Of a stretch of 64,000 nucleotides of DNA, positions 5,714-31,885 are shown piece after piece. The stretch covers positions 1,061-65,060 of the forward strand of contig DATIBN010000033.1 in assembly GCA_035457525.1 (NCBI GenBank), given 5' to 3'. The notes below the pieces were generated by a model. The model was given only the letters and a program-made list of their open reading frames with translations, ran no database searches and was not told the DNA's origin. Numbering within the stretch: the first letter of the stretch is position 1; each line of letters begins with the position of its first letter. Position numbers and translations under genes: made by a program. This DNA is from Thermoanaerobaculia bacterium (lineage in GTDB: Bacteria > Acidobacteriota > Thermoanaerobaculia > UBA5066 > Gp7-AA6).

Positions 5714-5715
5714 GG

Positions 5716-6861: not shown

Positions 6862-6994
6862 CCTCCTGTCAGGGACCGTTCAGGCGAAGGATCAATGTGC
6901 GAATGGCGGCCCCTATGCTTCAAATGCATCATTTGAGTGATCTGGAGCATTTGCATCAGGCCGCCGTTTCCGACCCGATCCGATACTCGCTCTC

Positions 6995-9145: not shown

Positions 9146-9586
9146 TCAGAGAGTCAGCGACGGAGCGACCGGCGGTGGGGGCGGTGCAACCACGAACGGA
9201 CGGGCGATGACCTCGACCCGCGGGGGATCGAGCAGGTGCTTCTTGACGCTGCACTGATCCGTCGCGCGGACGATCGCCTCGCGGTACCGCGATGGGAAGT
9301 CGGGCGGCAGCTCGATCTCGATCAGGACGTCCGTGACGCGCCGGACGGCCGGGTCTTTCTCCGCGGTCACCTTCAGCGTCACGTTTTCGGTCGGAATCCC
9401 GCGCGCCTGGCAGAACCGGAGAGCGTAGTAGCCGGCGCAGGTGCCGACCGAGGCCAGGAAGAGGTCGAAGGGGGACGGGGCCGAGCCCTCGCCTCCCACG
9501 GATGGCGGCTGGTCGGTCCGAACGGTGAGGCCGTTGAAGTCCGCCTCCACTGCGAGCCCACCGGGCAAACGGATGTTCATTTCCAT
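9146..9586 (-). CDS. OsmC/Ohr family peroxiredoxin-like protein
   Basis: GTCAGYYALRFCQARG region typical of OsmC. Start taken at MEMNIRL. An alternative ATG at 9634 lies inside the 18-bp palindrome. Confidence 0.7.
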   Translation of the reverse strand: MEMNIRLPGGLAVEADFNGLTVRTDQPPSVGGEGSAPSPFDLFLASVGTCAGYYALRFCQARGIPTENVTLKVTAEKDPAVRRVTDVLIEIELPPDFPSRYREAIVRATDQCSVKKHLLDPPRVEVIARPFVVAPPPPPVAPSLTL

Positions 9587-9619
9587 GCCCCAAGGAGACC
9601 CCCGTCCCGCCTCTCCGGC

Positions 9620-9637
9620 CTGATGCAAGCGCATCAG
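9620..9637. promoter_or_regulatory. 18-bp palindrome CTGATG-N6-CATCAG (copy 1 of 5), putative operator
   Basis: ctgatgcaagcgcatcag. Lies in the divergent region between the OsmC-like and radical-SAM-like genes. Confidence 0.4.
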
Positions 9638-9718
9638 TGCTTTTCCAGGGCATCCGGATGATCTTCGTCATGTGCCCGGGAGGGGCGCGTCGCCACAATC
9701 CGACAGGGAGGCATCGCC

Positions 9719-10957
9719 ATGTTCTCACCGGTCGAGCTCGAGATCGAGCTGTTCTGCCGCGGGCTCAAGGTCGATCGCACGTGCGAGCTGGGCGCCGACG
9801 GCCGCCGCATAGCTCGAACGCGGGCGGGGCTCGGCTCCGGGCTGGAGCTCGTCATCCGCGGGCGCCGGCGGGATCACTGGGTCAACGTCCCGGTCGCCGA
9901 GGGTTTCGCGGAGAAGTCGCCTTTCCGCCTGTTCAAGCAGCCCGACGGGTACTGGCTCCTGGACGAGCGGAGCGGCGAAGGGTACCGGGCCGCCCTGCCG
10001 GAGGAGCCCGACTGGTATTCGCGGCGGACCTCCTCGGGCGTCGAGATGAGCCGGGTGGGAGTTCTCCAGGGAAACTACCTCGGCATCTACGTCTCGACGG
10101 CCTGCCTCTTCTGGGCGTCGCGCCCCCTGCGCGCGTGCAAGTTCTGCACGACCGGAAAGAATGTGGGGTCCGTCGAGCAGGCGCGGAAGAAGATCGAGGA
10201 CGTCGTCGAGGTCGCCACCGCGGCCCGCGACGAGTCCGGCTCGGTCTTCACGCACCTGAACACCGGTTATCACTATGAAGAGGTCGACCGGCTCGAGGCT
10301 GTCCACGGCCTGCGGCAGTGCGAGCCCTTCGTGCGCGCGTTGCGCCGCAAGGTCGGAGGCTTCATCGGCATCCAGTGCATGCCGGTCCCGCGTCGCATGT
10401 TCCACGAGTACGACGCGTTGATGGATGCCGGCGCCGACCACTTCTCGTTCTGCTACGAGTTCGAGGACCCGGAAGTGTTCGCCCGGGTGTGTCCGGGCAA
10501 AGCGGAGACCGTGGGTCAGGCCGCTTTCTTCGAGGCCATGGAGTACACCGCGGCGCGACTGGGCCGGGGCCGCGTCTCCGGCGAGATCATCGCGGGCATC
10601 GAGCCGATCGAGTCCACGAAGAGGGGCATCGACCGGATCGTCAGCGCCGGCGCGTTCCCGACGGTCTGCATCTTCCGTCCCACGATCGGAAGCGAGATGG
10701 AGAACGTCCCAGCCCCCGACCCCGAGGCGATGAAGGAAGTTTTCGCGCACCTCTATCAGGCGTGCCGTGCGGCGCAGCTGCCGGTCGGCATCCTCCCGAT
10801 CGACGTGTCTCTCGTCGTCCAGCCCGAGGAGTGCCGGGATCTGGTCGAGCCGACCTTCGACTCGCGGCTCTACGACTGGGAGCTCGCCGCGCTCCGCTTC
10901 CTCGCGCGACCCTACGTCGCCTGGAAGACGCGGCCGCGCCGCTTCGCGGCCGCGTAG
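9719..10957 (+). CDS. putative Fe-S / radical-SAM-like protein
   Basis: 412 aa. Cys cluster ACLFWASRPLRACKFC (CX10CX2C) followed by a TIM-barrel-like region. Family not firmly recognised. Confidence 0.4.
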   Translation: MFSPVELEIELFCRGLKVDRTCELGADGRRIARTRAGLGSGLELVIRGRRRDHWVNVPVAEGFAEKSPFRLFKQPDGYWLLDERSGEGYRAALPEEPDWYSRRTSSGVEMSRVGVLQGNYLGIYVSTACLFWASRPLRACKFCTTGKNVGSVEQARKKIEDVVEVATAARDESGSVFTHLNTGYHYEEVDRLEAVHGLRQCEPFVRALRRKVGGFIGIQCMPVPRRMFHEYDALMDAGADHFSFCYEFEDPEVFARVCPGKAETVGQAAFFEAMEYTAARLGRGRVSGEIIAGIEPIESTKRGIDRIVSAGAFPTVCIFRPTIGSEMENVPAPDPEAMKEVFAHLYQACRAAQLPVGILPIDVSLVVQPEECRDLVEPTFDSRLYDWELAALRFLARPYVAWKTRPRRFAAA

Positions 10958-10964
10958 CGGGCGC

Positions 10965-11651
10965 TCAGTCCTCCTCCAGGTTGGGCGCGAGGAGGGAGAG
11001 ATCGGGGATCCGGAAGCCCTTCTTGTCCGTTTCGACGATCCCTTCCTTCTGCCACCGGCTCAGGATGCGGATCGAGGTCTCGACGGTCGTGCCGACCAGG
11101 TCGGCGATCTCCTGTCGGGAAAGCGCGATCGGGATGAAAATCCCGTCCTTCGTTTTCTGTCCGACCCGCTCGGCCAGCGTCGAGAAAAGACGGCCGATGC
11201 GGATCTCGACGGAGCCCGTCATGTCGGCCATCCGGCGGTTCAGGGCCATCAGGCGCATCGTCAGGCCGGCGAGCAGCCGGCGCGTGATCTCGGGACGCTT
11301 CTCCAGAAGCGAGAAGAACTCGCGGCTCGGGATCGAGATGACGCCCGACGGCTCGAGCGCGATCGCGGTCGCCGGGAAGGGCCGGCGCTCGTAGACGGCC
11401 ACCGCCCCCACCGGTTCGCCCGGGCCGAGGATCTCGAGGATCAGGTCCCGGTCCCCGGCCGACTTGACGATCTTGACGCGCCCGAGGAACAGGAAGTGGA
11501 TGTGGTTGGCGGGATCTCCCTCCTCGAAGATCGTCGCTCCCTTCTCGTAGGCGGCGAGCTCGCAGAGCGGCTCGAGCGCCCGGCGGTCGTCTTCCGTGAG
11601 CGAGAGCAGGACCGGGATCGCGTTGAACGGAATCGGCGGGCGCGGCGACAC
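10965..11651 (-). CDS. Crp/Fnr family transcriptional regulator
   Basis: N-terminal cNMP-binding beta-roll and C-terminal HTH (RQEIADLVGTTVETSIRILSRW). No Fnr-type N-terminal Cys cluster. Confidence 0.85.
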   Translation of the reverse strand: MSPRPPIPFNAIPVLLSLTEDDRRALEPLCELAAYEKGATIFEEGDPANHIHFLFLGRVKIVKSAGDRDLILEILGPGEPVGAVAVYERRPFPATAIALEPSGVISIPSREFFSLLEKRPEITRRLLAGLTMRLMALNRRMADMTGSVEIRIGRLFSTLAERVGQKTKDGIFIPIALSRQEIADLVGTTVETSIRILSRWQKEGIVETDKKGFRIPDLSLLAPNLEED

Positions 11652-11674
11652 GCGGGGATTATGGCGCGGTCAGC

Positions 11675-11810
11675 CCCCTCACCCCGGCCCTCTCCCCGCC
11701 AGATCGGGGTCAGGTCTCCACTTGCCACTTCGCGCCGCGAAGTGGCAAGTCCGTTGCCGTCAAGTCGGAACTGACGCGACTCGTGAATACCTGACCCCGC
11801 GGGGAGAGGG
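11675..11810. repeat. GC-rich hairpin repeat with a nested MITE-like palindromic insertion
   Basis: Arms ccctctccccgc (11688-99) and gcggggagaggg (11799-810) flank a ~93-bp insert. The insert has 10-bp TIRs (ggggtcaggt / acctgacccc) and an inner perfect 15-bp-arm palindrome (11720-11750). The leader cccctcaccccggccc matches the repeat at 50263. Confidence 0.5.
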
Positions 11811-12182
11811 AGTACCTGCGGCGCCGCGTTCGCTTCGCGCGCGGCGCGGCTGGAGCAAAGGAAACGGGCCGGTCGGACGCCCGAGACGCGCCTGGGAGGG
11901 CGGCGTCTAGACCGGCCCGTGGAACGGGGAGAAACCGATCTGCTCCGGGGCCGAGCGTCGCGGTGGAGCGGGGCATGTCACCGCGGGACCGCTGGCGGAA
12001 GTCCGGGTCAGGGAAAAACCCGGAGAAAGGGGGGAGGCAGATCGGGAGTGATGCCGGTGTTCGCGATTCGAGTCAATGGCGCAAGAGCGTCCGGCCCGAT
12101 GAGTCGAGCCCTGCTTCGGATTTCGCGTTCCGTTCATCCTCTCCCCTGGTCCGGGATACTCGTCCACCCCGTTGACGCCGGT

Positions 12183-12200
12183 CTGATGAGAATTCATCAG
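12183..12200. promoter_or_regulatory. 18-bp palindrome CTGATG-N6-CATCAG (copy 2 of 5)
   Basis: ctgatgagaattcatcag, overlapping the 3' end of the NnrS-family gene. Confidence 0.35.
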
Positions 12201-14011
12201 ACGCCGTGCACCGGCAGGGTCGACTGGAAGGAAGGCTTTTTGCGGACCGGCGGGCGCGGCTTCTCGCGGCCGCGCATCGTCCGGAACAGGTTGAACATGA
12301 AGAGCACGAGCGCGAGCACGACGGGGATGCCCATCCAGGAGCCGATCTCGTAGAAGACGGGCCGGAAAGCCGCCGGGTACTGCAGGAGCCTCATCGCCGC
12401 GCCGCCGAGCAGGAGGCCGTAGGTCACGCGCGCGAGCGCCGGCGACCAGAGACGCTTTCCCGAGAACACCGGCAGGATTCGGAAGCTCATCCCGACGATC
12501 AGGAGCGTGAGGAATCCGATCGTGAAAACGTGCCGGCCGGCGTCCGCCCACCAGAGGTTCTGCGCCGGGATCCGCGTGGTGCGGGAGAGAGCCACGGCCG
12601 CGAGCTCCAGGACCGCCCAGAGGCCGAGGCACGCGAACGCCGAGCGGATCGCGAACGTCGGCGATCCCGGAGCCTTCATGGCCGGGAGCTTCGGCTTCCT
12701 CCAGAGGAAGCCGTTTCCGCCGAGATAGACGACCGCCGACAGGGCCGCGAGCACCAGGCCTGCGTCGCGCAGAGCGAGGCCGGCGGCCGGCGCGAGGAAG
12801 GGGAGCCACCCCGCGCAGTAGAGCGGCCCGGCCGCGATCTGCAGGACCATGGCGGTCTCCGGCGTGCCGCGCCGCGCGGGGCCGAGCCCGAGGAACAGAG
12901 ACACCACCCGGTTCCCGAAGCCGTAGATCCAGGCGAGCAGGAATCCGTAGAGCGCCAGGAAATAGAAGGTCTCGTTCAGGGCGGTGGGCAGGGAAGTCTC
13001 GTGATGTCCCGCGAGCCAGATGCCCTGGGCTCCCAGGACGACGAGAGCGGCGGCGAAGAAGGCGGTCCCGATGGCGACGAACCGCAGGATCGGGTCCTTC
13101 CGGTCGTACTTGCCGGCCGGCATCTCCGAGAAGAGCGAGAAGACGAACGTGACGAAGAGAACGCCCGCCGCGAGCTCAATCGCCGCGGAGAGAAAGGAGA
13201 TCACGCGGCCGATCGGATAGAAGCCGAGCGGCTGGCCGACGTTCCTCAGGATCACTCCCCCGAACATGAGCCAGAACGCGACGCGCGACGACTTCGGGGT
13301 CCGGCTTCCGATCCCGAGGATTCGCGGCAGGGCGTGGTACGCGATCCCCATCAGGAAGAGCGCGGCGAAGCCGAGGACCTGCGTGTGACCATGGATCTGG
13401 CGGTGGGACAGCGGGACTTCGGCTCCCGCCGCGATCCGCAGGAGGTTGATCATCCCGGTCGTCGCGCCGAGCGTGAGCGTCAGGAAGAGGCTCCCGAGGA
13501 TGAAGTGCGGCGAGAACGGGCGGGCCGAGGTCGCGGGAACGGGAGGCGCCGCCGCGGTGTCGCGCACGGCGGCTTCGCGAAGGTCGCGGAGGAACTCCTC
13601 GAGCGGAAGCCGGTGCACCGTGGCGAACCAGGCGACCGGCTCGTCGGGCCCCTCGGGTCCGCCGCAGTCTCCGAGCCCGTAGCGCTCGAAGACCGGCGCC
13701 GTCCCCGGGAAGCGTCGGCGGATCTCGCGGATCGACATCGTCGGGGGAACGATGGCGTGGGCCTCCGCCGCACGATGCGCGGACTGGAGATCGGCCACGA
13801 CGTCCTCGAGAGGCTCCCCGCGCGCCGCGCACGCCTGCGCCAGCGGGTGCTCGCCGCCGCAGCAGGTGTCGAGGCCTCGCGCCGCGAGAGCGGACGAGAG
13901 GTGGGGCATCCGGGCGAGGATCTCCCGGACCGGCATCCGCGGATCGATGGCTCCCGGTTCCATGGTCCGACGATCTCTCCGGAGGGGGCCCCGCGCCATG
14001 ACGCCGGTCAT
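12197..14011 (-). CDS. DUF1858 (x2)-NnrS family membrane protein
   Basis: Two N-terminal DUF1858-like modules (MPVREILARMPHL...GLDTCCGGEHPL; MSIREIRRRFPGTAPVFERYGLGDCGGP) followed by a ~12-TM NnrS-like domain. Exact start uncertain. Confidence 0.65.
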   Translation of the reverse strand: MTGVMARGPLRRDRRTMEPGAIDPRMPVREILARMPHLSSALAARGLDTCCGGEHPLAQACAARGEPLEDVVADLQSAHRAAEAHAIVPPTMSIREIRRRFPGTAPVFERYGLGDCGGPEGPDEPVAWFATVHRLPLEEFLRDLREAAVRDTAAAPPVPATSARPFSPHFILGSLFLTLTLGATTGMINLLRIAAGAEVPLSHRQIHGHTQVLGFAALFLMGIAYHALPRILGIGSRTPKSSRVAFWLMFGGVILRNVGQPLGFYPIGRVISFLSAAIELAAGVLFVTFVFSLFSEMPAGKYDRKDPILRFVAIGTAFFAAALVVLGAQGIWLAGHHETSLPTALNETFYFLALYGFLLAWIYGFGNRVVSLFLGLGPARRGTPETAMVLQIAAGPLYCAGWLPFLAPAAGLALRDAGLVLAALSAVVYLGGNGFLWRKPKLPAMKAPGSPTFAIRSAFACLGLWAVLELAAVALSRTTRIPAQNLWWADAGRHVFTIGFLTLLIVGMSFRILPVFSGKRLWSPALARVTYGLLLGGAAMRLLQYPAAFRPVFYEIGSWMGIPVVLALVLFMFNLFRTMRGREKPRPPVRKKPSFQSTLPVHGV

Positions 14012-14038
14012 ATCGAGGGGCGGCTGGCCCGCCCGGGC

Positions 14039-16552
14039 TCAGCCGGGTGTCGGGAGGGACCTCCGGGCGCGGAAGATCTTGAACGCCTCGAACCAGGCGA
14101 TGCCGGAGAGCCCGGCCCCGAGGCAGAGGAGGAGATCGTTGGCGTGCAGCTTCGAGAAGCCGAAGAGCTCGCGGGGTCCCGGCGCCGCCAGCAGGAGCAC
14201 GAGAAGACAGAGGGCCCCGCCGACGACCCACGGGAGAGCGCTGTTCTTCGAACGGAACGACTGGACGATGGTGCGGGTCCAGCTCCGGTTGGCGAGGATG
14301 AGGGCGAGGTTGGAGACGATGAGGGTCGTGAACGCGAGCGCACGCGCGTCCTCGGCACCCTGACCACGCGAGAGCGCGACGGCGAACACCGTCAGGACGA
14401 TCGCGAGCACCCCCGCGCCCTGGAGGACCGCGAGGCCGACCGTCTTCCGCGAGAAGAGCGGCTCCTCGGGTCGTCGCGGTGGACGTGTCATGACGTCCGC
14501 TTCCTCCGGCTCGGCCTCGAACACGAGCGAGCAGGCGGGGTCGATGATCAGCTCGAGGAAGACGATGTGCACGGGCATCAGCACGAGCGGCCAGCCGAAG
14601 ACGATCGGCAGCAGCGACATTCCCGCGATGGGAACGTGAATGGCGAAGATGTACGCGCCGGCGTTGCGGAGGTTGTCGAAGATGCGCCGGCCCATCCGGA
14701 CGGCGGCCACGATCGACGCGAAGTCGTCGTCGAGTAGGACGAGATCCGCGGCTTCGCGGGCCACGTCGGTGCCGCGCTGGCCCATCGCGATGCCCATGCC
14801 GGCCGCCTTCAGCGCCGGCGCGTCGTTCACCCCGTCCCCGGTCATTGCGACGATTTCTCCGTTCGCCTTCAGCGCGCGCACGATGGCCAGCTTCTGCTCG
14901 GGTCGGACGCGGGCGAACACCTCGACCGACTCGATCCGGCCGCGGAGTGTGTCGTCGTCCATCCGATCGAGGTCCGCTCCCGTGAGGACGACGACCGCGT
15001 GGTCCCGCGCCAGTCCGATCTCGCGCGCGATCTGGATCGCCGTGACCGGGTAGTCTCCCGTGATCATCACGACGCGGATACCGGCCTGCCGGCATTCGCG
15101 GATCGCACCCGGAACCTCCGGGCGGATCGGATCGGCGAGGCCGAGGAGCCCGACGAGTTCGAAGGCGAAACCGGTCTGATCGTCCGGCAGCTCCGGCGGA
15201 TCGAATGTTCCTCGCGCCACCCCGAGCACGCGCAGCCCCCGGGCCGCGAGAGTACCCACGGCCTGCTGGACCGACTCACTCTCGGACGGCGAAAGCGCGC
15301 AGAGGTCCGCGATCGCTTCGGGAGCCCCTTTCGCCGCGATGACCCGCCGGCCGTCCGCGGGGGACACCCAGACCTGGGACATCACGAGCCGCTCGGGCGA
15401 CAGGGGATACTCGCGGGTCAGCGTCCACTCCGCACGGCGGGCCGGAAGAGGCGGCCCCGCTCGCGGCTCGAGGGAGCGGATCGCCTGCTCCATCGGGTCG
15501 AACGGGTCCGGTTTGCTGGCGAGGATTGCGACCTCGACGACCTCACGCACTGGCTCGGGAAGCGGGTCGTTCCCCGGCGAGACGTCGTAGACACTCCCTG
15601 CCGTCGCGATGGTCCGCACCGCCATCCGGTTCTGTGTCAGCGTTCCCGTCTTGTCCACGCAGAGCACCGTGGTCGCTCCGAGGCTCTCGATCGCCGGGAG
15701 CCGCCGCGTGAGCACCCGCCGGCGGGAGATGCGCCAGGCGCCGAGCGCAAAGAAGATCGTCAGGATGACCGGGAACTCCTCCGGCAGGACGGACATGGCG
15801 AGAGCGAGTCCCGCGAGGAATCCCTGCAGCCAGTTTCCCCTCGTCATGCCGTAGAGGACGACGACGGCCGCGCAGAGCGAGAGGCCAACGATGGCAAGGC
15901 GCCGCACGATGCGGCCGGTCTCCTCCTGAAGGCGGGTCTTGCCGGGCGCGATCGTCTCGAGCGATCGGCCGATCTTTCCGATCGCGGTGCGGGAGCCGGT
16001 CGTATCGACCCGCGCCAGCGCGTTCCCGGAAACGACGAGGGTTCCGGAGTGAACGGCATCGCCCGCCGCCTTCCGAACCGGAAGGGACTCGCCCGTCAGG
16101 AGCGACTCGTCCACGGCGAGGTTCGACTGCTCCAGGAGCGTCGCGTCGGCGGGGACCCGGTCCCCCTCCGAGAGGACGACGAGGTCGCCCGGCACGACCT
16201 CCCGGCCCGGGATTCTCCGCCGCGTTCCATCGCGGATCACGAGCGCGCGCGGGCTCGAAAGGTCCCGCAGCGCCTGGAGGGCACGCTCGGTCCGCTGGTT
16301 CTGAAACAGGGAGATCGCGACGACGACGAGTACCGAAAACAGGAGCACGATCGCTTCGCGGAGATCGCCCAGCAGGAGGTAGATCCCGCCCGCCGCGAGC
16401 AGCATCAGGATCATCGGCTCCCGCACGACGTCGAGCGCCGCCCGGAGGAGGCCCGTGCGCCGGGCCGCCGGCAGTTCGTTGAAGCCGGACTGGATGAGGA
16501 GCGCCGCGGCTTCCCGTTCCGAGAGCCCGAGGCCGCTCGAGATCGAAGTCAC
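14039..16552 (-). CDS. cation-transporting P-type ATPase (Ca2+/Mg2+-type, P2)
   Basis: DKTGTLT phosphorylation motif, TGES, MITGD and GDGVNDAPAL. 837 aa with 10 predicted TM. Confidence 0.9.
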   Translation of the reverse strand: MTSISSGLGLSEREAAALLIQSGFNELPAARRTGLLRAALDVVREPMILMLLAAGGIYLLLGDLREAIVLLFSVLVVVAISLFQNQRTERALQALRDLSSPRALVIRDGTRRRIPGREVVPGDLVVLSEGDRVPADATLLEQSNLAVDESLLTGESLPVRKAAGDAVHSGTLVVSGNALARVDTTGSRTAIGKIGRSLETIAPGKTRLQEETGRIVRRLAIVGLSLCAAVVVLYGMTRGNWLQGFLAGLALAMSVLPEEFPVILTIFFALGAWRISRRRVLTRRLPAIESLGATTVLCVDKTGTLTQNRMAVRTIATAGSVYDVSPGNDPLPEPVREVVEVAILASKPDPFDPMEQAIRSLEPRAGPPLPARRAEWTLTREYPLSPERLVMSQVWVSPADGRRVIAAKGAPEAIADLCALSPSESESVQQAVGTLAARGLRVLGVARGTFDPPELPDDQTGFAFELVGLLGLADPIRPEVPGAIRECRQAGIRVVMITGDYPVTAIQIAREIGLARDHAVVVLTGADLDRMDDDTLRGRIESVEVFARVRPEQKLAIVRALKANGEIVAMTGDGVNDAPALKAAGMGIAMGQRGTDVAREAADLVLLDDDFASIVAAVRMGRRIFDNLRNAGAYIFAIHVPIAGMSLLPIVFGWPLVLMPVHIVFLELIIDPACSLVFEAEPEEADVMTRPPRRPEEPLFSRKTVGLAVLQGAGVLAIVLTVFAVALSRGQGAEDARALAFTTLIVSNLALILANRSWTRTIVQSFRSKNSALPWVVGGALCLLVLLLAAPGPRELFGFSKLHANDLLLCLGAGLSGIAWFEAFKIFRARRSLPTPG

Positions 16553-16574
16553 GGGCGCCCTGGCGAAGCGGCGC

Positions 16575-17021
16575 TCAGAGCGAGCGGCCGGCCGGCACCA
16601 CCAGCAAAGGGATCGGCGAGCGGACGAGCAGCTCCTGCACGGTCGAGCCGAGGAGGAAACTCGCGGTCCGGCCGTGTCCCCGCGTTCCCATCACGAGCAT
16701 GTCGTGTCCGCGTCGCGCCTCGCGTCCGAGCTCCCGTGCGGCGTCGCCGCGAAGGAGGCGGATCGCCGCGTCGCCGCGCGCGAGCTTCCCGAGGCGTTTC
16801 TCGTAGTGCTCCGCGATCGCCTTCTCGAGCGCGCCCGTTCCGAGGTGCAGAAGATCTCCCCGCTCTTCGAGAACCGCGGCGCGCACGTCGGAGAGCGGCC
16901 GCACGTGGGCGATCGTGATCTCCCCGCCAACGCGCTTCGCGAGGCGCGTCGCCGCCCGGAGCGCCGCGAGCGACTCCGGCGAAAAATCGACCGCGACGAG
17001 GACGCGCAGGGGTGAGGCCAC
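16575..17021 (-). CDS. universal stress protein (UspA family)
   Basis: LRVLVAVDFSPES ... MLVMGTRGHGRTASFLLGSTVQELLVRSPIPLLVV. GTG start immediately after the upstream stop. Exact start uncertain. Confidence 0.7.
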   Translation of the reverse strand: MASPLRVLVAVDFSPESLAALRAATRLAKRVGGEITIAHVRPLSDVRAAVLEERGDLLHLGTGALEKAIAEHYEKRLGKLARGDAAIRLLRGDAARELGREARRGHDMLVMGTRGHGRTASFLLGSTVQELLVRSPIPLLVVPAGRSL

Positions 17022-17032
17022 CTCCGGGGATT

Positions 17033-17434
17033 CTATCCGCGCGGGGAGTCGGACGAGGGTTCGCCCCGTCTCGCGCTGCCGAACACGAAGGCGTCGGGCT
17101 CCGGCGGCCGGAACTCGACCAAGGTCGTCGTTCCGTCGGCGGAGTTGATCCCGAGCGCGGCGTCGCCGCCGTCGTCGCTCCTCTCGAGCCAGACCGCGAT
17201 CGGACGCGAGACCGCGTGCTCCACGTTTCGGCCGGGCGCGTCGCCGAGGTGAATCGAGATCTTCGTCGCCAGCCGATCGGACACGATTCCCTCGAGCGGC
17301 AGGTCGCGCGCTTCGACCTGCGCGCCGATGCGCGGACCGACGAGCCACACGGTGGTCGGCCACCCGGGATGGCGCCGCGTGAACCCTTCGAAGAACGAAA
17401 ACCATTCGGCGCGGGGGACGAGTCGGTTTCTCAT
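17033..17434 (-). CDS. hypothetical protein (DUF5335-like general stress protein)
   Basis: Balanced-composition ORF MRNRLVPRAEWFSFFEGFTRRHPGW... in the frame opposite an R-rich artifact. Start may be at 17464 or 17488. Confidence 0.4.
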   Translation of the reverse strand: MRNRLVPRAEWFSFFEGFTRRHPGWPTTVWLVGPRIGAQVEARDLPLEGIVSDRLATKISIHLGDAPGRNVEHAVSRPIAVWLERSDDGGDAALGINSADGTTTLVEFRPPEPDAFVFGSARRGEPSSDSPRG

Positions 17435-17546
17435 GGCCCCCTCCTCGACAGAATCCTGCCTCATCCGCGAATGAAATCGCTGATGCAAACGCTTCTATCT
17501 CCGGAGACGGGGCCCGTTCCACGATGATCCCCGTCGAAAAGGAGCT

Positions 17547-20285: not shown

Positions 20286-20364
20286 AGGCGCGGAAGGAGG
20301 AGACATGTCCGGCACGGTCGAGATTCCCGAGGCAGCCGCCGAGACGGCGCGGGAGAGGGGCACC

Positions 20365-21414
20365 ATGAAAGCGTTCGTGATGCGCGAGATCGGAAAAGTC
20401 GGCGTCGTCGACAAGCGGATCCCCGACGTCGGACCGAACGACGCGCTCGTGCGCACGACCGCCGCCCTCATCTGCACGTCCGACGTTCACACGGTCCAGG
20501 GCGCGATCGGCCCCCGGGAGAACCGGACGCTCGGCCACGAAGCGGTCGGGTTGATCGAGAAGCTCGGCGGCGCGGTGTCCGGACTCGAGGTCGGCCAGCG
20601 GGTGACCGTCTCCGCGATCACTCCCTGCTGGAAGTGCGAGAACTGCCTGCGCGGCTTTTCCTCGCAGTGCGGGGAGGCGCTCGGCGGGTGGAAGTTCGCG
20701 AACACGAAGGACGGAAATCTCGCCGAGTACTTCCACGTCAACGACGCGCAGGCGAACGTCACCCCGATCCCGGACGACGTCCCGGACGAGCTCGCGGTCT
20801 ACGTGTGCGACATGCTCTCGACCGGCTTCATGGGCGCCGAGCACGCCGCGATCCCGATCGGCGGCACGGTGGCCGTGTTTGGCGCCGGTCCGGTCGGACT
20901 CATGGCGATCGCGGGATCGAAGCTCCTCGGCGCCGGACTCGTCATCGCGGTCGAGAGCGAGGGAAAGCGCCAGGACTTCGCGCGTTACTACGGTGCGGAC
21001 GCCATCGTGGACTTCACGCGCCTCGACCCCGCCATCGAAATCCGGAAACTGACCGGCGGACGCGGCGTCGATTCGGCGATCGAAGCGGTCGGCAACGCGG
21101 ACAGCTTCGCCGGATGCGTGAAGGCCACGCGCCCGGGTGGAACGATCTCGAACGTCGGATACCACGGAAAGGGCGACGTCGTCCCGATCCCGCGCCTGGA
21201 GTGGGGGGTCGGCATGGCGGACAAGACCATCCGGACGGGGCTCTGTCCGGGAGGGCGGGAGCGGATGGAAAGACTGCTGCGCCTCCTTCAGAGGAAGCGC
21301 GTGGACCCGACCCCGCTGACGACCCATCGCTTCCCGTTCTCGGAAGTCGAACGCGCCTTCGAGATGATGCGCACGAAGGAGAACGGGATCATCAAGCCGC
21401 TGATCCTCTTCTGA
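20365..21414 (+). CDS. zinc-dependent alcohol dehydrogenase (NAD(P)-dependent, secondary-ADH-like)
   Basis: GHEAVG Zn site, CxxCxxC structural Zn site, and GAGPVGL Rossmann motif. Start taken at MKAFVM, inside track ORF 20305..21414. Confidence 0.85.
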   Translation: MKAFVMREIGKVGVVDKRIPDVGPNDALVRTTAALICTSDVHTVQGAIGPRENRTLGHEAVGLIEKLGGAVSGLEVGQRVTVSAITPCWKCENCLRGFSSQCGEALGGWKFANTKDGNLAEYFHVNDAQANVTPIPDDVPDELAVYVCDMLSTGFMGAEHAAIPIGGTVAVFGAGPVGLMAIAGSKLLGAGLVIAVESEGKRQDFARYYGADAIVDFTRLDPAIEIRKLTGGRGVDSAIEAVGNADSFAGCVKATRPGGTISNVGYHGKGDVVPIPRLEWGVGMADKTIRTGLCPGGRERMERLLRLLQRKRVDPTPLTTHRFPFSEVERAFEMMRTKENGIIKPLILF

Positions 21415-21418
21415 GCGC

Positions 21419-21700
21419 TCAGCGGCCGGGCGGAGGGCCGTCCCGGCGTTCGATTTCGATCCGGTGGTAGTCCTCGAGCGCCTTCCGGACGATCTTCTGG
21501 AGGTTTTTCATGCGCCGGGCCGACCTTCGGCGCTCCCGCTCGTCGAGGAAGGCCCGGCGCCGGCGGACCGTCTCCCGCCAGAGCAGGTCGACCGCCCGCT
21601 TCAGCCGGGCATAGAGGAGCTCGGCCGTCAGGTCCAGCGTCTCGGCCACGGGACGATTCTCCCTCTGTTCTGGCCAAAAAGGGTGCTGATTCGTTTGCAT
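21419..21700 (-). CDS. hypothetical protein (93 aa)
   Basis: MQTNQHPFWPEQ... ORF. Its ATG lies inside palindrome copy 3. Confidence 0.35.
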   Translation of the reverse strand: MQTNQHPFWPEQRENRPVAETLDLTAELLYARLKRAVDLLWRETVRRRRAFLDERERRRSARRMKNLQKIVRKALEDYHRIEIERRDGPPPGR

Positions 21701-21703
21701 CAG
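21686..21703. promoter_or_regulatory. 18-bp palindrome CTGATT-N6-CATCAG (copy 3 of 5)
   Basis: ctgattcgtttgcatcag, in a divergent region 72 bp upstream of the Cys-rich secreted protein gene. Confidence 0.35.
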
Positions 21704-21774
21704 GACTCCGGGGCGGGGGGGTTCTAGCCTGCAATCCAGCGGGAAAACGGAACGTCCCCCGCAGGAGGAAACCA

Positions 21775-22272
21775 GTGCTCTTCCGCCGCCCCGGTCTCGT
21801 CCAGGTCGCGTCGTTCGTGCTCCTGTTCGGTGTGCCGCTCGCCGCGTCACTCGCCCTCGATCGCGCCGCTTCCTCGCGGACGTCCCGTCACGTCCGGTTC
21901 TTCGACGCCCCGTCTCAGACCGCCGAGTTCATCGGTTACTCGAGGTCCATCACGCTCACGCCCGCGGAGCAGAAAGTCCGCGACAAGGCGCTCCAGGCCA
22001 TGGAAGCGCCCTGTTGCGAGAAATTCTCCCTCGCGACGTGCTGCTGCCCCTGCAACCTGGCGAAGAGCGCATGGGGCCTCTCGAACTACCTGATCGCCCG
22101 GAAAGGCGCCAGCGCCGCGGAGGTCCGCGATGCGGTCGGCGGCTGGCTCGCGTTCGTCAACCCGAACGGCTTCAGCGGCGACGCCTGCGACACCGCGGGA
22201 GGGTGCGCCCGTCGCTTCGCCCATAACGGTTGTGGAGGAATGGATGAAAGAAATCTCCTCACGGCCCGCTGA
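21775..22272 (+). CDS. secreted cysteine-rich hypothetical protein
   Basis: Signal-peptide-like N-terminus. Cys clusters PCCEKFSLATCCCPCNL and ACDTAGGCARRFAHNGCGG. Confidence 0.45.
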   Translation: MLFRRPGLVQVASFVLLFGVPLAASLALDRAASSRTSRHVRFFDAPSQTAEFIGYSRSITLTPAEQKVRDKALQAMEAPCCEKFSLATCCCPCNLAKSAWGLSNYLIARKGASAAEVRDAVGGWLAFVNPNGFSGDACDTAGGCARRFAHNGCGGMDERNLLTAR

Positions 22273-22597
22273 CGGATCGTCCCCGACCCGGCCGCGACCA
22301 CCCGGTCCGCGGAGCACCTCCGGCGCCCGCCGGCAGCTCACCCGGCGCGAGAAGGAGATCCTGCGTTTCCTCGCGCTCGGAATGGGCACGTCGGCGATCG
22401 CCCGGGAGCTGGCGATCTCTCCGGCGACGGTGCGCAACCATGCGCAGCGGATCCTGGCGAAGCTCCAGGTCCACAGCCGGCTCGCCGCGGTGGCGCGCGG
22501 CTACGCGGTCGGTTTGCTGACCTCGCCGCAGTGGATGAACTCGCCGGCGCCGGACTTGACGGGCCGGCTGGCGCGTAACGTTCCAGCCCCCGGCTGA
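22244..22597 (+). CDS. LuxR-family HTH transcriptional regulator (small)
   Basis: REKEILRFLALGMGTSAIARELAISPATVRNHAQRILAKL LuxR-type HTH. GGAGG 6 nt upstream of the ATG. Confidence 0.7.
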   Translation: MKEISSRPADGSSPTRPRPPGPRSTSGARRQLTRREKEILRFLALGMGTSAIARELAISPATVRNHAQRILAKLQVHSRLAAVARGYAVGLLTSPQWMNSPAPDLTGRLARNVPAPG

Positions 22598-22658
22598 TTC
22601 GTCCGAGCATGGATCCGGGGGCCGCCCGTGCCTGGATTGGAAACAGGGGAGGTGAATC

Positions 22659-23243
22659 ATGACCACGATCGTCCTCATTCTCGCGGTGGCTTTCGTTCTG
22701 TCGTGGATTCCCGCGATCGTCGTCCACTTCGTCGCGCGGCGACGAAGCGCGGGTGACCGGGTCATCACCTGCCCGGAGACGCACACGACCGAAGTCGTTC
22801 GCGTCGACGCGGGACACGCGGCCTGGACGGAGATACGCGGAGACAAGGAGCTGCGCCTGCAAGCGTGCTCGCGCTGGCCGGAGAAAGCGGATTGCGCCCA
22901 GGATTGCATCCGGGAGATCGAGGCCGCACCCGACGGGTGTCTCGTCCGCGAACGGCTCGAAACCTGGTATCGCGGCGCGGAGTGCGCTCTCTGCGGAATG
23001 ACCATCGGGGCGCTCCACTGGTTCGAGCACCGTCCCGGTCTGCTGACGCCGGAGAACAAGGCGGTCTCGTGGGAAGAGATCCCCGCGAAGGAGCTTCCGA
23101 CGGCGCTGGCCGAGGATCGGCCGATCTGTTCCGACTGCTTTCTCGCCGAGTCGTTCCGCGAGAAGTTCCCGGAGCGGGTGATCGACGATCCCTGGCACAA
23201 GGTGAACCGCCGCGAAACGCGCTCACCCGGGCCGATGGCGTGA
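22659..23243 (+). CDS. membrane-anchored cysteine-rich hypothetical protein
   Basis: N-terminal TM helix, then multiple Cys pairs (CALCG, CSDCF). Confidence 0.45.
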   Translation: MTTIVLILAVAFVLSWIPAIVVHFVARRRSAGDRVITCPETHTTEVVRVDAGHAAWTEIRGDKELRLQACSRWPEKADCAQDCIREIEAAPDGCLVRERLETWYRGAECALCGMTIGALHWFEHRPGLLTPENKAVSWEEIPAKELPTALAEDRPICSDCFLAESFREKFPERVIDDPWHKVNRRETRSPGPMA

Positions 23244-23315
23244 CGACGGGCAGTTCCGCCCGCGTCCTCCACCGGGACGAAGCGATCTCTCACCTGCGAT
23301 CGTCGCTCGTCCGCA

Positions 23316-23638
23316 TGACGGACGAGGAGCATTCGCTCTGTCAGGTCGCCGCGGACCTCGGGATTTTCTGCCGCGGCTTCCGCCGATGGAACGAGGCGGA
23401 GTTCGACCGCCACTGGCGCAAGTCGATCGGTCGCAGCACGCACCTCTCGCGCCGCCAGATGGAGGAGTACGCGAACCTGTGGCAGCTCGCCGAGCAGGTC
23501 CGGCGCCGCGTCTCGCTTGCCTGCGACGCGCAGACGATTTCCGGCGGGCCGTGTCGCGGATGGAGCGAGTTTTCCAACGCGGAGCTCGCGCGGTTCTGCA
23601 ACGACGTCCTCGGCGAGAACGTGGACGTCATCGAGTAG
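23316..23638 (+). CDS. hypothetical protein
   Basis: Balanced-composition ORF MTDEEHSLCQVAADLGIFCRGF... May start at the GTG at 23240. Confidence 0.3.
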
Positions 23639-23695
23639 TCAACAGCGGCGCGGACTCGCTGCCGGCGAACCCGATGACCGGAATCGCCGGCGGAT

Positions 23696-24211
23696 TCACA
23701 GCAGGCCGCGATCGTGGAGGAGACGCCAGAGCGATCCGATCGCCTCTTCCGGAGCGCCGGCGCCGGAGACGACGAGGTCCGGGCGGAGCGGATCCTCGTA
23801 CGGCTCGCCCATCCCGGGGAGGTGAGGTGCGTCGCCGCTCCGGGCCGCGCGGTAGAGACCCTTCGGGTCACGCCGCTCGCAGACGTCGGGCGGCGTGTCC
23901 ACGAAGACCTCGAGGAAGACGGGAATCCGGCGGCGGGCGCTCCCGCGGTGCGCGCGGCGCGGGCTCGTCGCGTCCACGATCACCGGGATCCCCTGCCCGG
24001 CGAGGAGCGCCGCGAGCGCGGCGACCATCTCGTAGAAACGGTCGCGCTCTTCGGCCGCATAGGTCGGCTGCGGGGTCAGGATCCGGCGCAGCGAGTCCGA
24101 TTCGAGATGCACGAGCGCCACTCCGCGGTCGGCGGCGAGCTCTTTGAGCGCCCGCGCGAGCGTCGTCTTGCCGGCGGCGGGCCGTCCGGTGAACCAAATT
24201 ACCCAGCTCAC
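23696..24211 (-). CDS. cysC: adenylyl-sulfate (APS) kinase
   Basis: WFTGRPAAGKTTLA P-loop and APS-kinase-like C-terminus. GTG start overlaps the upstream stop (GTGA). Confidence 0.85.
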   Translation of the reverse strand: MSWVIWFTGRPAAGKTTLARALKELAADRGVALVHLESDSLRRILTPQPTYAAEERDRFYEMVAALAALLAGQGIPVIVDATSPRRAHRGSARRRIPVFLEVFVDTPPDVCERRDPKGLYRAARSGDAPHLPGMGEPYEDPLRPDLVVSGAGAPEEAIGSLWRLLHDRGLL

Positions 24212-25314
24212 GTTTCCCCGCGTGTCAACAACTCGTCGATCTCGGCCGGATCGAATCGGTCTCGGCCGAGAACCCCGACCACGAAGCGGAGGAGCGCACG
24301 CCGCGTGGCGTCGGCTTCCGCCGGGTACCAGAGCGGGTTCGCGAGCACCAGCGCCCGGAACGCGAAGTGCGGCGCGATCACGCCCGCGAGCTCTTCGTCT
24401 CCGGAGGCGTCCCGGTATCGGTTCCAGAAGAGATGGAACAGGTCGGCGAACGGACCGAGAAACCCTCCCCTCCCGCGCAGGGCGAAGAAGAGCCAGTTGA
24501 TCGCGAGCGCCGCGACGTCGTCCGCGGGCTCTCCGTAGCGGCCGCGGCTCCGATCGAGCGCGGTGAAGTTCGTTCCCTCTCGAAAGAGGATGTTCCAGGG
24601 GTGAAAATCGCCGTGGATCCGGCGGAGCCGTTCCGCACGATCCCGCAGCCGGTAACGCCAGCGAAGGACGAGGGCCTCTACCCGTTCGAGGTAAGCCGCG
24701 TCGGGGAACCCGGAGCCCGGGTAGGAGTCCGCGATCCCGGCGATGCACTCCCCGGAGCCCGCGAGCTCGCGCAGCCGCCGGCGGTACCACGTCTCGTGAA
24801 CGATGGGCTCGCGGTGTATGGCGGCGAGGTAATCGGCGAGCGCGAGGGCGCGATCGGAATCGAGCGGCTCGAGCCGGTCGCGCCCGGCGATGCGCTCCAG
24901 GTCGCGCGCATACGGCTCTCCTTCGACGAACTCGGTCAGCAGGAAAAACTCTCCGGCGCCGGCGAGCGCGACGAGCCCGTTCGATTTCGAGAATGCGCCC
25001 GCGTCGACGGCGCGCACGTGCTTCGGCAGCTCGCCGTAGTCGTCGAAAGCACGAAGGACGAGGGCGGCGCGGTCGGCGCGATCTTCGTGGCCGAAGCCGC
25101 CGGGCCGGACGGTCTCGAGCACGTAGCGGCGTTCGATATCGCCCGATCGCCAGCGGACGAGCTGCGGAACGCCGTAGCCGCCCCCCTTGACTCCCGGTGC
25201 GGTCGCGAGAGGCTCGATCCGCGCGAAGCCGGCGTCGGGCCCGAACTTCGCGGCGAGGTAATCGCGGAGACCCGCAAAGCGAAGCTCCCGGGTCTCGACG
25301 TCGGCGCTGGCCAC
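24208..25314 (-). CDS. aminoglycoside-phosphotransferase-like (APH/protein-kinase-like fold) kinase
   Basis: IHGDFHPWNILF catalytic motif. The N-terminal 350 aa of track ORF 24208..26394 is the antisense of the UbiA gene. Start taken at the GTG at 25314; an ATG at 25419 is the alternative. Confidence 0.65.
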   Translation of the reverse strand: MASADVETRELRFAGLRDYLAAKFGPDAGFARIEPLATAPGVKGGGYGVPQLVRWRSGDIERRYVLETVRPGGFGHEDRADRAALVLRAFDDYGELPKHVRAVDAGAFSKSNGLVALAGAGEFFLLTEFVEGEPYARDLERIAGRDRLEPLDSDRALALADYLAAIHREPIVHETWYRRRLRELAGSGECIAGIADSYPGSGFPDAAYLERVEALVLRWRYRLRDRAERLRRIHGDFHPWNILFREGTNFTALDRSRGRYGEPADDVAALAINWLFFALRGRGGFLGPFADLFHLFWNRYRDASGDEELAGVIAPHFAFRALVLANPLWYPAEADATRRALLRFVVGVLGRDRFDPAEIDELLTRGET

Positions 25315-25358
25315 GTTGGTCCCTCGCCCGAAGACTAGGCCCCCGTGACCGCTTGACT

Positions 25359-25376
25359 TTGATGAGGACGCATCAA
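25359..25376. promoter_or_regulatory. 18-bp palindrome TTGATG-N6-CATCAA (copy 4 of 5)
   Basis: ttgatgaggacgcatcaa, between the divergent kinase and UbiA-family genes. Confidence 0.4.
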
Positions 25377-25401
25377 GGAACGCGTTCGACGCCCGCCTAC
25401 A

Positions 25402-26319
25402 GTGGGTTTCGTGGTGCATTCCTTCGCCGCGGGCCTCGGGAGACTCGCCGATCCGAAGATCTCGCTCGCGTCGTTCTCGTCCCTGTTTCTCGGGACCGTT
25501 CTCGCAGCGCACGACGGCGCGCTCTCGATCGCATGGCTCGCCGTGACGGTCGGCGGCATCTTCGCTCTCGAGATCGCGAAGAACGCTTCGGGGGAGATCC
25601 ACGACTTCGCCGCCGATTCGTCGGTGAGAGCAGAGGAGCGGACTCCGTTCTCCGGCGGCAAGCGAGTTCTGGTGGACGGAGTGCTCACGCCGCGCGAGAC
25701 TGCCGTGCTCGCGGCGACCGGTTACTTCGTCACGGCTGCGTGTGGAGTGGCGATCGTTCTCTTTCGGGAGCCGGCCGTGCTCGGACTCGGCGTGCTCGGA
25801 CTCGCGTGCGCGTACTTCTACAACGCTCCGCCGGTGCGCCTCTCGTATCGCGGCCTCGGCGAGATCGCGGTCGGGATCTGTTACGGGCCGCTCATCGCGT
25901 GCGGAACGTACCTGGTTCAGCGCGGGACGATCGCGCGCTCCGTCCTGATTCTGTCGATCCCGCTCGGTCTCCTGATCGCGGCGTTTCTCTTCGTCAACGA
26001 GATCCCCGACCGCCGCGCCGACGAAAGTACGGGCAAGCGCACTCTCGTCGTGCGCCTGGGGGCCCGTCGTGCGGCCGTCGTTTTCGGTGGGATTCTCGCC
26101 GCCGCGTTCGCTCTCCTCTTCGCGCTCCCGCTCGCAGGTCTCCCTCTCGGCCTCGCCCTCGGCGTCGTCGCGGCCGTCCCCGCTTTCTTCGCCGCCCGGG
26201 ACCTCAAGAGAGATGTCTCGACTCCCGGCGCGTCCCTGCCTGCGCAACGCCTCGCTCTCGTGACATTTCTCCTGTTCGCTGCGGGCTCGGGGGTGGGTGC
26301 GGCGCTCCTCAAATCGTGA
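25402..26319 (+). CDS. UbiA-family aromatic prenyltransferase (MenA/UbiA-like)
   Basis: Polytopic membrane protein with NEIPDRRAD (NxxxDxxxD) motif. Confidence 0.8.
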   Translation: MGFVVHSFAAGLGRLADPKISLASFSSLFLGTVLAAHDGALSIAWLAVTVGGIFALEIAKNASGEIHDFAADSSVRAEERTPFSGGKRVLVDGVLTPRETAVLAATGYFVTAACGVAIVLFREPAVLGLGVLGLACAYFYNAPPVRLSYRGLGEIAVGICYGPLIACGTYLVQRGTIARSVLILSIPLGLLIAAFLFVNEIPDRRADESTGKRTLVVRLGARRAAVVFGGILAAAFALLFALPLAGLPLGLALGVVAAVPAFFAARDLKRDVSTPGASLPAQRLALVTFLLFAAGSGVGAALLKS

Positions 26320-26349
26320 AGAACCCCCGTCTTTTCCGTACCTTGGGAC

Positions 26350-26367
26350 CTGATGCACCTGCATCAA
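26350..26367. promoter_or_regulatory. 18-bp palindrome CTGATG-N6-CATCAA (copy 5 of 5), upstream of the MtrC-like gene
   Basis: ctgatgcacctgcatcaa, 133 bp upstream of the SD-linked ATG at 26500. It is followed by an AT-rich tract with direct repeats GCAACAAACTCAAA / GCAACAGGCTCAAA (26411-26442). Confidence 0.4.
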
Positions 26368-29566: not shown

Positions 29567-29573
29567 GGGCGCG

Positions 29574-31520: not shown

Positions 31521-31558
31521 AAGGGTCACGAAAGGGGAGCGGTAACAGGGAGATGAAG

Positions 31559-31840: not shown

Positions 31841-31851
31841 GAACCGGGGAT

Positions 31852-31885
31852 CGGCCGGCCGGCTGCGGCCGGCCGGTGTTCGTTT
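31852..31885 (+). terminator. hairpin (self-complementary CCGGCCGG pair) followed by a T-rich tract
   Basis: cggccggccggctgcggccggccggtgttcgtttt, directly after small paralog 1. Confidence 0.4.

Follow-up and report, generated by a model that had tools for sequence, protein, structure and literature searches.

The stretch of DNA analysed here, called the window below, comprises 64,000 nt from an uncultured member of the Thermoanaerobaculia (Acidobacteriota) and carries, among other genes, an mtrCAB-like operon, a [NiFe] hydrogenase operon, a gene for a Crp/Fnr-family protein and an operon that codes for a Cys-rich protein (CysRich) and a solo LuxR-type protein. Upstream of several of these genes recurs a short palindrome, TGATGC-RWWY-GCATCA, which an earlier note made from the letters of the window had described as five copies of YTGATG-N6-CATCAR and had proposed as the operator of a regulon governed by the Crp-family protein. 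The gene map of the window was drawn by combining third-position GC content with Pfam/NCBIfam searches, and it bore out the annotations of that note (OsmC, a variant radical-SAM protein, Crp/Fnr, an ScdA_N/DUF1858/NnrS fusion, APH kinase, UbiA and MtrC-, MtrA- and MtrB-like proteins) as well as the locations given there for all five copies. For comparison, relatives of the Crp-family protein supplied 65 genome loci, relatives of MtrC 80 metagenome loci and homologues of two small regulon proteins another ten, with about 20 kb in view per relative genome; individual loci are cited by their L numbers.

A recurrent palindrome in the window

The sequence YTGATG-N6-CATCAR occurs exactly at positions 9620, 12183, 25359 and 26350, and it had no match in 100 dinucleotide-preserving shuffles of the window, which were used to set the chance level. 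The copy at 21686 carries one core mismatch, so that four of the five copies are exact; when a mismatch is allowed, five copies are found against 0.40 expected. Enumeration of every 5-mer palindrome with spacers of 0 to 12 nt, a procedure without bias towards any motif, placed TGATG-N6-CATCA as the most over-represented palindrome of the window (4 copies against 0.03 expected, p 2e-8), and the claim that its recurrence is beyond chance stands. AGGTC-N6-GACCT, second in the same list, was discarded as a codon effect because its five copies all lie within coding sequence. The 45-nt flanks of the five copies of the TGATG palindrome share no sequence, so it is not a dispersed repeat of the repetitive extragenic palindrome (REP) or miniature inverted-repeat transposable element (MITE) type, an alternative that the earlier note had itself raised. 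With regard to the form of the motif, the TGATG and CATCA arms held, the outer Y and R positions turned out not to be conserved, and positions 6 and 7 (C and R) proved to be conserved instead. Three further weak copies, located in two promoter regions beyond the five (Table 1), score 14-19 bits with the weight matrix, a range in which a background of 1.4 Mb of motif-free loci holds 0.27 sites per 64 kb.

Gene callers and longest-ORF (open reading frame) rules start genes at the ATG within the palindrome, as seen at 26353 in the window and at 592 and 2313 in L149. The ORF at 26353 had already been suspected of such a spurious start, and the real start of the mtrC-like gene is the ATG at 26500, behind GGAGGAG. 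An ATG inside a different palindrome, the ATGAC box described below, is likewise mistaken for a start at 14009-14011, and the resulting N-terminal extensions measure 20-49 codons.

Table 1. Palindromes, candidate regulators and target units located in the window (scores from the weight matrix)
Feature	Position	Strand	Context	Remarks
Site 1, TGATGCAAGCGCATCA	9621-9636		between OsmC gene (9146-9589, minus) and radical-SAM gene (9719, plus)	exact, 24.4 bits
Site 2, TGATGAGAATTCATCA	12184-12199		overlaps stop codon of ScdA_N/DUF1858/NnrS fusion gene (12197-14011, minus)	exact, 25.4 bits
Site 3, TGATTCGTTTGCATCA	21687-21702		between g21419 (77 aa; 21419-21652, minus) and CysRich gene (21775, plus)	one mismatch, 25.0 bits
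Site 4, TGATGAGGACGCATCA	25360-25375		between APH kinase gene (start 25314, minus) and ubiA (25414, plus)	exact
Site 5, TGATGCACCTGCATCA	26351-26366		ends 133 nt before mtrC-like ATG 26500	exact
Weak site, TGCTTCAAATGCATCA	6916-6931		hydrogenase/hypA divergent region	18.7 bits
Weak site, TGGAGCATTTGCATCA	6943-6958		27 bp from the 6916 site	15.6 bits
Weak site, TGATGCAAACGCTTCT	17481-17496		between DUF5335-USP-ATPase-NnrS genes (minus) and GNAT/ADP-forming acyl-CoA synthetase gene (plus)	14.2 bits
ATGAC box, CATGACGCCGGTCATA	13997-14012		5' end of NnrS-fusion gene	one mismatch to TATGAC-N4-GTCATA; not of the TGATGC family
Crp/Fnr-family protein	10965-11651	minus		Pfam cNMP_binding and HTH_Crp_2
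Conserved transcription unit, candidate small RNA or 76-codon ORF	11850-12155	minus		alignment of four loci
Solo GerE/LuxR-type HTH protein	22244-22597	plus		117 aa, no receiver domain; Pfam GerE 8e-18
g23243 family protein	23243-23638	plus		132 aa; five invariant Cys and a His; two C-x9-C-R-G-[FW] modules
mtrC-mtrA-mtrB-like genes with downstream multihaem/cytochrome b and NapC/NirT genes	26500-35378	plus	target operon of site 5	Pfam

Conservation of the palindrome in relatives

A logo derived from 38 non-redundant sites in 20 Thermoanaerobaculia genomes refined the motif to the 16-bp TGATGC-RWWY-GCATCA, a dyad of 7-2-7 form (TGATGCR-WW-YGCATCA). Loci of Crp orthologues with 70% identity or more hold nine exact copies in about 160 kb, and the 818-860 kb around Crp homologues of about 50% identity hold none. 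Around mtrC the palindrome is present only where the mtrC orthologue is at least about 60% identical, and it was not found around more distant mtrC homologues; this recurrence upstream of close mtrC orthologues supports the proposal of a regulon of several operons, the mtrCAB-like one among them. Six loci have independent gene calls; there, 23 of the 25 strong sites are intergenic, although intergenic DNA amounts to 6.3% (p 6e-26), and both of the others lie in ORFs that the gene caller had started on the palindrome's own ATG.

The orthologous positions are kept while the spacers of the palindromes differ between genomes. Site 1, between the OsmC and radical-SAM genes, has orthologues in L003 (6183), L149 (2311), L157 (3804) and L153 (3541); the sequence variant seen at site 2 stands at the same position in L003 (3647), L157 (5474) and L153 (5283), with a similar one in L009 (892). 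The most widely conserved site is site 3, between g21419 and CysRich, which recurs in L005, L008, L074, L148, L149, L151, L153, L155 and L157. Upstream of the mtrC orthologues the palindrome is found at -76 to -158 in L070, L074, L077, L078, L119, L143, L148 and L155, and in L071, L072 and L076 it stands ahead of a USP-g23243-mtrC operon. Hydrogenase genes of relatives are preceded by a strong site too (at about 10340 in L149 and L151, and via CysRich in L008), and the orthologue of the weak window site at 17481 is stronger in relatives (5211 in both L149 and L150). Sites are clustered around the CysRich-LuxR-g23243 module, with 3-7 per 20 kb. This pattern of conservation supports the interpretation of the palindrome as a clade-specific conserved cis-regulatory operator, present in one clade of the Thermoanaerobaculia. 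A search of the literature for the motif strings returned no paper with the motif.

Genes that follow the palindrome

In the window, the targets comprise, besides the mtr operon, whose synteny is kept in L070, L148 and L155, ubiA, an APH/APS-kinase operon, the OsmC and radical-SAM genes, g21419, the CysRich-LuxR-g22659-g23243 operon, an operon for a USP, a P-type ATPase and an NnrS fusion, the gene of an ADP-forming acyl-CoA synthetase with its alcohol dehydrogenase and the unit that follows site 2. The weak sites at 6916 and 6943 add the [NiFe] hydrogenase and hypAB. Additional targets in relatives are genes for a PAS hybrid histidine kinase, an FAD/Fe-S oxidoreductase, rhodanese, hemerythrin-like proteins, USPs, HSP20 and phosphoketolase/acetate kinase, as well as a full hydrogenase-maturation operon directly behind CysRich-LuxR. 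The regulon is an anaerobic, redox-stress and energy gene set.

The hydrogenase genes of the window (1869-8040) form a complete group-1-type [NiFe] operon, divergent from hypA/hypB, with a small subunit, a HybA-like Fe-S protein, a HybB-like membrane protein and a large subunit; relatives carry a different hydrogenase operon directly behind CysRich-LuxR.

The palindrome as a probable promoter element

In a first set of sites, 11 of the 17 TAnnnT hexamers in the flanks lay at offsets 22-24 from the edge of the palindrome, and in an enlarged set (68 sites, 136 flanks) 22 of 28 did so; with a relaxed definition of the -10, a phased -10-like element was present at 41 of the 68 sites. When transcription starts are placed from these hexamers so that the -10 occupies -12 to -7, the palindrome of 16 bp covers approximately -50 to -35 and is centred at -42.5. 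The ATGAC boxes served as a positive control, with a hexamer at offsets 22-23 in 27 of 120 flanks, which corresponds to a centre at -41.5.

Within the window the arrangement can be followed from site to site. Site 1 has the -10-like GATGAT at offset 20 towards the radical-SAM gene, site 2 has GAGTAT at 12156-12161 (minus) at offset 22, and site 3 has TAGCCT at 21725-21730, again at offset 22, in the direction of CysRich. Site 4 is flanked by TACAGT (25398-25403, plus) and TAGTCT (25332-25337, minus), each at offset 22, which implies that a single site can serve both ubiA and the APH/APS-kinase operon. Such use is familiar from the tra box, the site of TraR, one copy of which can serve divergent promoters. 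Site 5 has a weak -10 only (TATCTC at offset 20), and the mtrC-proximal sites of relatives show hexamers of the GAGAAT, GACAAT or CAGAAT type at offset 22. As for the weak sites, the copy at 6943 has AAGCAT at offset 22 towards the gene of the hydrogenase small subunit, and that at 17481 is flanked on both sides by hexamers of -10 type, at offsets 22 and 23. The distance between site and start codon is 31-87 nt at most genes.

The explanation that best accounts for these observations, with a probability of roughly 0.6, is that the palindrome would be the DNA site of a dimeric helix-turn-helix (HTH) activator. Its proximal edge at about -35 would substitute for the -35 element of sigma-70-type promoters that have a -10 but no -35 and, because the site lies at that position, the bound protein would most likely recruit RNA polymerase directly (class II activation), with one site able to drive two divergent promoters as at ubiA/APH. 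The existence of the site, its conservation, its confinement to intergenic DNA, its phasing with -10 elements and the genes that it precedes are observed; both the activation and the identity of the protein are deduced from the DNA, and activation of this class is an ordinary, well-known kind of mechanism. Several observations weigh against this interpretation. About 40% of the sites, that of the window mtrC included, are without an obvious phased -10, and the start codons of OsmC and g21419 are only 31-34 nt from their site, a spacing that may fit repression or leaderless messages better than activation. Others concern the candidate activator proposed below: its gene is not in the regulated island of L148, L074, L005 and L008; no close solo LuxR was seen on the 4.46-Mb contig of L148 among the best 120 of 3060 matches; and the PAS-LuxR proteins found in some of the loci (L071, L072, L076 and L114) differ at two positions of the recognition helix while the motif is unchanged, which argues for a more universally conserved binder.

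Alternatives of another nature were also considered. A role as the enhancer (upstream activating sequence) of the sigma-54 activator of NtrC type encoded at 58055-59416 which would call for a site some 80 bp or more upstream of a -24/-12 promoter, was rejected on the ground that the sites lie 22-24 nt from sigma-70-type -10 hexamers and mostly 31-87 nt from start codons, a judgement made with no formal -24/-12 scan. It is also conceivable that the palindrome acts as RNA, in the form of a hairpin, terminator or processing site, or that it is a REP/MITE-like repeat, since a hairpin of 6-7 bp is possible at each copy and site 2 is situated at an operon's 3' end. The chance of this is close to nil: the stem sequence is kept without compensatory variation while the loop is variable, flanks are not shared, no T-tract follows the sites, the distance to the -10 hexamers is fixed on either side, and most copies are found between divergent start codons 100-130 bp apart.

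A conserved unit behind site 2

Site 2 stands at the head of the 546-bp gap that precedes crp and heads a conserved minus-strand unit of about 330 nt. The site-2 variant, TGATGAGAAYTCATCA, always comes closely after the 3' end of the ATPase/NnrS operon, and is followed, in order, by a GAGTAT/GAGGAT hexamer at offset 22, the conserved GGGGAGAcGATGA, about 290 nt of conserved sequence and a stem-loop with a T-tract. This terminal stem-loop and its T-tract are invariant (at about 11850-11905 in the window), and the unit is kept in the window, L003 (3665-4010), L153 (about 4905-5265) and L157 (about 5135-5455) whatever gene comes next. A frame of 75-78 codons is open in all four loci, and the substitutions are spread evenly over codon positions and the peptide is poorly conserved, so that the 76-codon ORF was rejected as a protein gene; the unit is probably non-coding. 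RNAalifold predicted 67 pairs, 8 of them with compensatory changes, and an Rfam scan of the window and of the 546-bp gap gave no match. The unit is a candidate small RNA transcribed from a palindrome-dependent promoter; site 2 would probably drive this non-coding transcript of about 330 nt, and in the window and L003 read-through from it might possibly extend into crp, which would make the Crp-type regulator a downstream member of a cascade.

The possibility that the 546-bp gap is a remnant of the PAS kinase gene that L005 and L007 carry at this position was dismissed for want of similarity. At about 11700-11790, inserted between the unit and crp, an inverted repeat (GGGTCAGG ... CCTGACCC) encloses a perfect hairpin (CCACTTGCCACTTCGCG/CGCGAAGTGGCAAGTGG); the closest relative, L003, is without this element, and it looks like a small mobile insertion.

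A second palindrome and the Crp-family protein

The recognition helix of the Crp-family protein of the window, TTVETSIRILSRW, is near-identical in about 50 homologues of about 50% identity, with the common pattern TT[IV]ET[SA]IR[IV]MSRW. The surroundings of these homologues (818 kb) contain no TGATG palindrome and 53 copies of TATGA-N6-TCATA (= ATGAC-N4-GTCAT) against 0.03 expected. This second palindrome, (T)ATGAC-N4-GTCAT(A), is far more widespread than the first, being present in about 50 loci among L013-L066, beside crp-like genes of many Acidobacteriota: in 18 loci its centre lies 14-56 bp (most often near 27 bp) upstream of the start codon of the crp-like gene, and in about 16 it lies about 40 bp past the stop codon. 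It has the CRP/FNR family's canonical TGA-N6-TCA geometry and is similar to the HcpR1 motif TTGAC-N4-GTCAA (PMC1274295). Exact ATGAC boxes are found at the NnrS-fusion gene in L003 (1832), L005 (3667), L148 (8456), L151 (1002) and L155 (1622), and within about 70 bp upstream of that gene in L004 and L008, so the two palindromes co-exist in the same genomes. The ATGAC box of the window is probably the cognate site of the Crp-family protein, FNR/HcpR-like in kind. Because this box, which is tied to the helix of the protein, stands at the 5' end of the NnrS-fusion gene, the Crp-family protein is best read as an FNR/HcpR-like regulator of that gene.

These results bear directly on the proposal that the Crp-family protein binds the TGATG palindrome and so would control the regulon and, via site 2, itself. 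The gene lies inside the cluster of sites, with site 2 located 531 bp upstream of crp in the window and in L003, and the class II position is typical of CRP/FNR proteins as well. In Shewanella, CRP directly activates mtrC (PMC4417206). The palindrome also occurs only in genomes with a Crp orthologue of at least 70% identity, a restriction that is confounded with phylogeny. Against this, the same helix is shared by homologues whose loci lack the palindrome and carry TATGAC-N4-GTCATA beside the gene, and in palindrome-bearing genomes it is the ATGAC box, with CRP-family geometry and the -41.5 position, that is found at the NnrS-fusion gene adjoining crp. In L153 and L157, moreover, the site-2 variant is not upstream of crp. 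The geometry that the earlier note had called CRP-type does not hold either: CRP and FNR sites share TGA-N6-TCA, whereas in the TGATGC motif TGA and TCA are 10 bp apart, that is, 4 bp further. The Crp-family protein, first choice of the earlier note, is thus a most improbable binder of the palindrome. The predicted centre of the motif, -42.5, is 1 bp from the -41.5 of class II CRP/FNR sites, where the ATGAC box falls exactly.

Canonical CRP/FNR-type sites were also counted in the window. TTGA-N6-TCAA occurs 6 times against 6.4 expected, which is chance, and GTGA-N6-TCAC 30 times against 19 expected, but those of the matches that were checked fall within coding sequence or a tandem repeat that is itself coding. 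An ATGAC-type box with one mismatch, ATGATCTTCGTCAT, was noticed at 9658-9671 (also at 3840 in L157 and 3578 in L153), 21 nt downstream of site 1 and over the predicted -10/start region of the radical-SAM promoter, where two regulators may act jointly.

Candidate regulators of the palindrome

Among the proteins encoded near the sites, a GerE/LuxR-type HTH protein, in the window the solo LuxR, is the likeliest candidate binder, though at somewhat less than even odds. The earlier note had named it after the Crp-family protein among those to be tested, and of the two it has become the better candidate. Its gene belongs to the operon driven from site 3, behind CysRich, and its closest solved relatives are DesR, NarL, LiaR, VraR and GerE, that is, DNA-binding domains of NarL type. 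The recognition helix is conserved among the solo LuxRs. The 16-bp 7-2-7 dyad fits the 16-20 bp dyads of NarL/LuxR activator boxes and so does the promoter-proximal position at about -42.5, as calculated from starts assigned through the -10 hexamers. A GerE-domain gene is present in a regulated operon in the window, L068, L075, L077 and L149-L157, and PAS-GerE (PAS-LuxR) proteins are encoded in L071, L072, L076 and L114, with the palindrome 45 bp upstream in L072 and L114. Wherever both are present, the genes of CysRich (21775-22272) and the solo LuxR share about 29 nt, an overlap that points to translational coupling and to a pair that functions together; in five more independent loci within L149-L157, the overlapping genes lie behind the best conserved site and head hydrogenase or Mtr operons. 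The pair is located at about 9532-10340 in L149-L157, and CysRich has a hydrophobic N-terminus and a CC...CCCPC motif.

The regulon contains another candidate regulator or sensor. The g23243 family, a core member of the regulon, comprises 266 proteins with no Pfam domain and with a segment, almost invariant, that is HTH-like; wherever a source names its organism, this belongs to the Thermoanaerobaculia or Acidobacteriota. A gene of this family lies downstream of a site in 13 loci, including loci without LuxR. It is unlikely that this protein is a new DNA-binding sensor of redox state or metals that both recognises the palindrome and regulates its own gene. It may be added that g23243 is often immediately upstream of mtrC and that its true start is a GTG near 23243 and not the internal ATG at 23306. 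The small protein g21419 (77 aa) was rejected as a regulator, having no domain and no PDB or NCBIfam match.

A somewhat more credible alternative, still a doubtful one, is that the palindrome is bound by a regulator whose gene lies elsewhere in the genome, in which case the genes of LuxR and g23243 would only be targets; it may be the PAS hybrid kinase's partner, a NarL-type response regulator, or else another Crp/Fnr paralogue or a protein of some other family. This would accommodate a motif that is identical in genomes with different local regulator content, and L005 and L007 both keep the PAS hybrid histidine kinase as a target, as expected of an autoregulated phosphorelay. On the other hand, the sites are strongly clustered around the CysRich-LuxR-g23243 module, clade-specific motifs usually pair with clade-specific regulators, two families of which are inside the regulon, and no further Crp/Fnr gene was seen in any motif-bearing mtrC locus. 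The odds are also against a bolder reading, in which the regulator would be of an undescribed kind (g23243 as a redox/metal sensor, or a solo LuxR gated by the translationally coupled, membrane-anchored CysRich) and the unit behind site 2 a new small RNA; if true, it would represent a new sensory switch that lets soil Acidobacteriota co-ordinate extracellular electron transfer with hydrogen oxidation and stress proteins.

Comparison with known regulatory systems

The proposed HTH activator site has its closest formal counterparts in the lux and tra boxes of LuxR and TraR, dyads centred at -42.5 that overlap or replace the -35, need both arms and are bound by a GerE-type HTH dimer (the lux box being an inverted repeat; PMC3376562). 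They differ in length (18-20 bp vs 16 bp here) and are unrelated in sequence, LuxR and TraR possess an autoinducer-binding domain that the 117-aa, HTH-only candidate lacks, and their targets are quorum-sensing genes, whereas respiratory and stress genes are targeted here. Another close system is DevR/DosR of Mycobacterium tuberculosis, whose Dev box is an 18-bp palindrome with an A/T centre and its proximal edge 33-34 nt from the start, recognised by a NarL/LuxR-family HTH and used by divergent promoter pairs (PMC3177182). The DosR hypoxia (dormancy) regulon includes ctpF (a P-type ATPase), USPs, hspX (HSP20) and ferredoxin, to be compared with the USP/P-type ATPase operon, HSP20 and hemerythrin of the present one, which adds Mtr conduits and hydrogenase. 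Unlike the arrangement found here, mostly of one site per promoter, at least two tandem boxes are present at every DevR promoter; the Dev box has conserved G3-G5 and C7 in place of the TGATGC half-site; and the solo LuxR has no receiver domain and no linked DosS/T-type kinase.

Class II sites of FNR/CRP proteins, HcpR1 of anaerobes included, resemble the palindrome in being palindromic activator sites beside a -10-only promoter in an anaerobic/redox regulon, and differ from it in the spacing and centre given above. In Shewanella oneidensis, omcA/mtrCAB is likewise an Mtr conduit under a global activator that controls other anaerobic respiration genes (PMC4417206), but the CRP sites there are class I-like, near -61.5, and cAMP-dependent, and motif, position, phylum and probably protein family are different. 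The NsrR (Rrf2) box gATGyAT-N5-ATrCATc has a half-site with GATGCA and targets that include nnrS/dnrN-type genes (PMC1274295). NsrR is a repressor whose sites overlap promoters, its box has GATGC and GCATC 9 bp apart vs 4 bp here, and no Rrf2 gene was seen; the NsrR box was rejected as an identity for the palindrome because the spacing is wrong in spite of the similar half-site.

Other repeats at these loci

A third palindrome, ACAAT-N6-ATTGT, was found 6 times against 0.00 expected in the Crp-orthologue loci and is not present in the window. It has the form ACAATATGCAGATTGT in L005 (14670), L007 (13675) and L009 (9533), with further copies in L005 (2399), L007 (4583) and L009 (1519), and is presumably the site of yet another regulator. 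In the window, a tandem 15-bp repeat, GCGAAGGAYCTCAC, occupies 59874-59977 inside an ORF (59598-60002) that has a sub-threshold match to the Pfam 'Decapeptide repeat'.

Implications for the Thermoanaerobaculia

The Thermoanaerobaculia are abundant, uncultured Acidobacteriota of soil and sediment whose hydrogenases and conduits of Mtr type are known by inference from metagenomes, and a literature search returned no paper on the regulation of Mtr conduits in Acidobacteriota or on the control of these hydrogenases. The motif described here separates two co-resident circuits, TGATGC-N4-GCATCA and the FNR/HcpR-like ATGAC-N4-GTCAT, and corrects gene starts that have been misplaced on the ATG of the palindrome. 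It makes the regulon readable from any metagenome-assembled genome of the clade and predicts promoters and start sites. In conclusion, it offers a testable regulatory code that would tie extracellular electron transfer, H2 oxidation, an NO-related NnrS/ScdA protein, USPs and HSP20 into one activator-dependent regulon.

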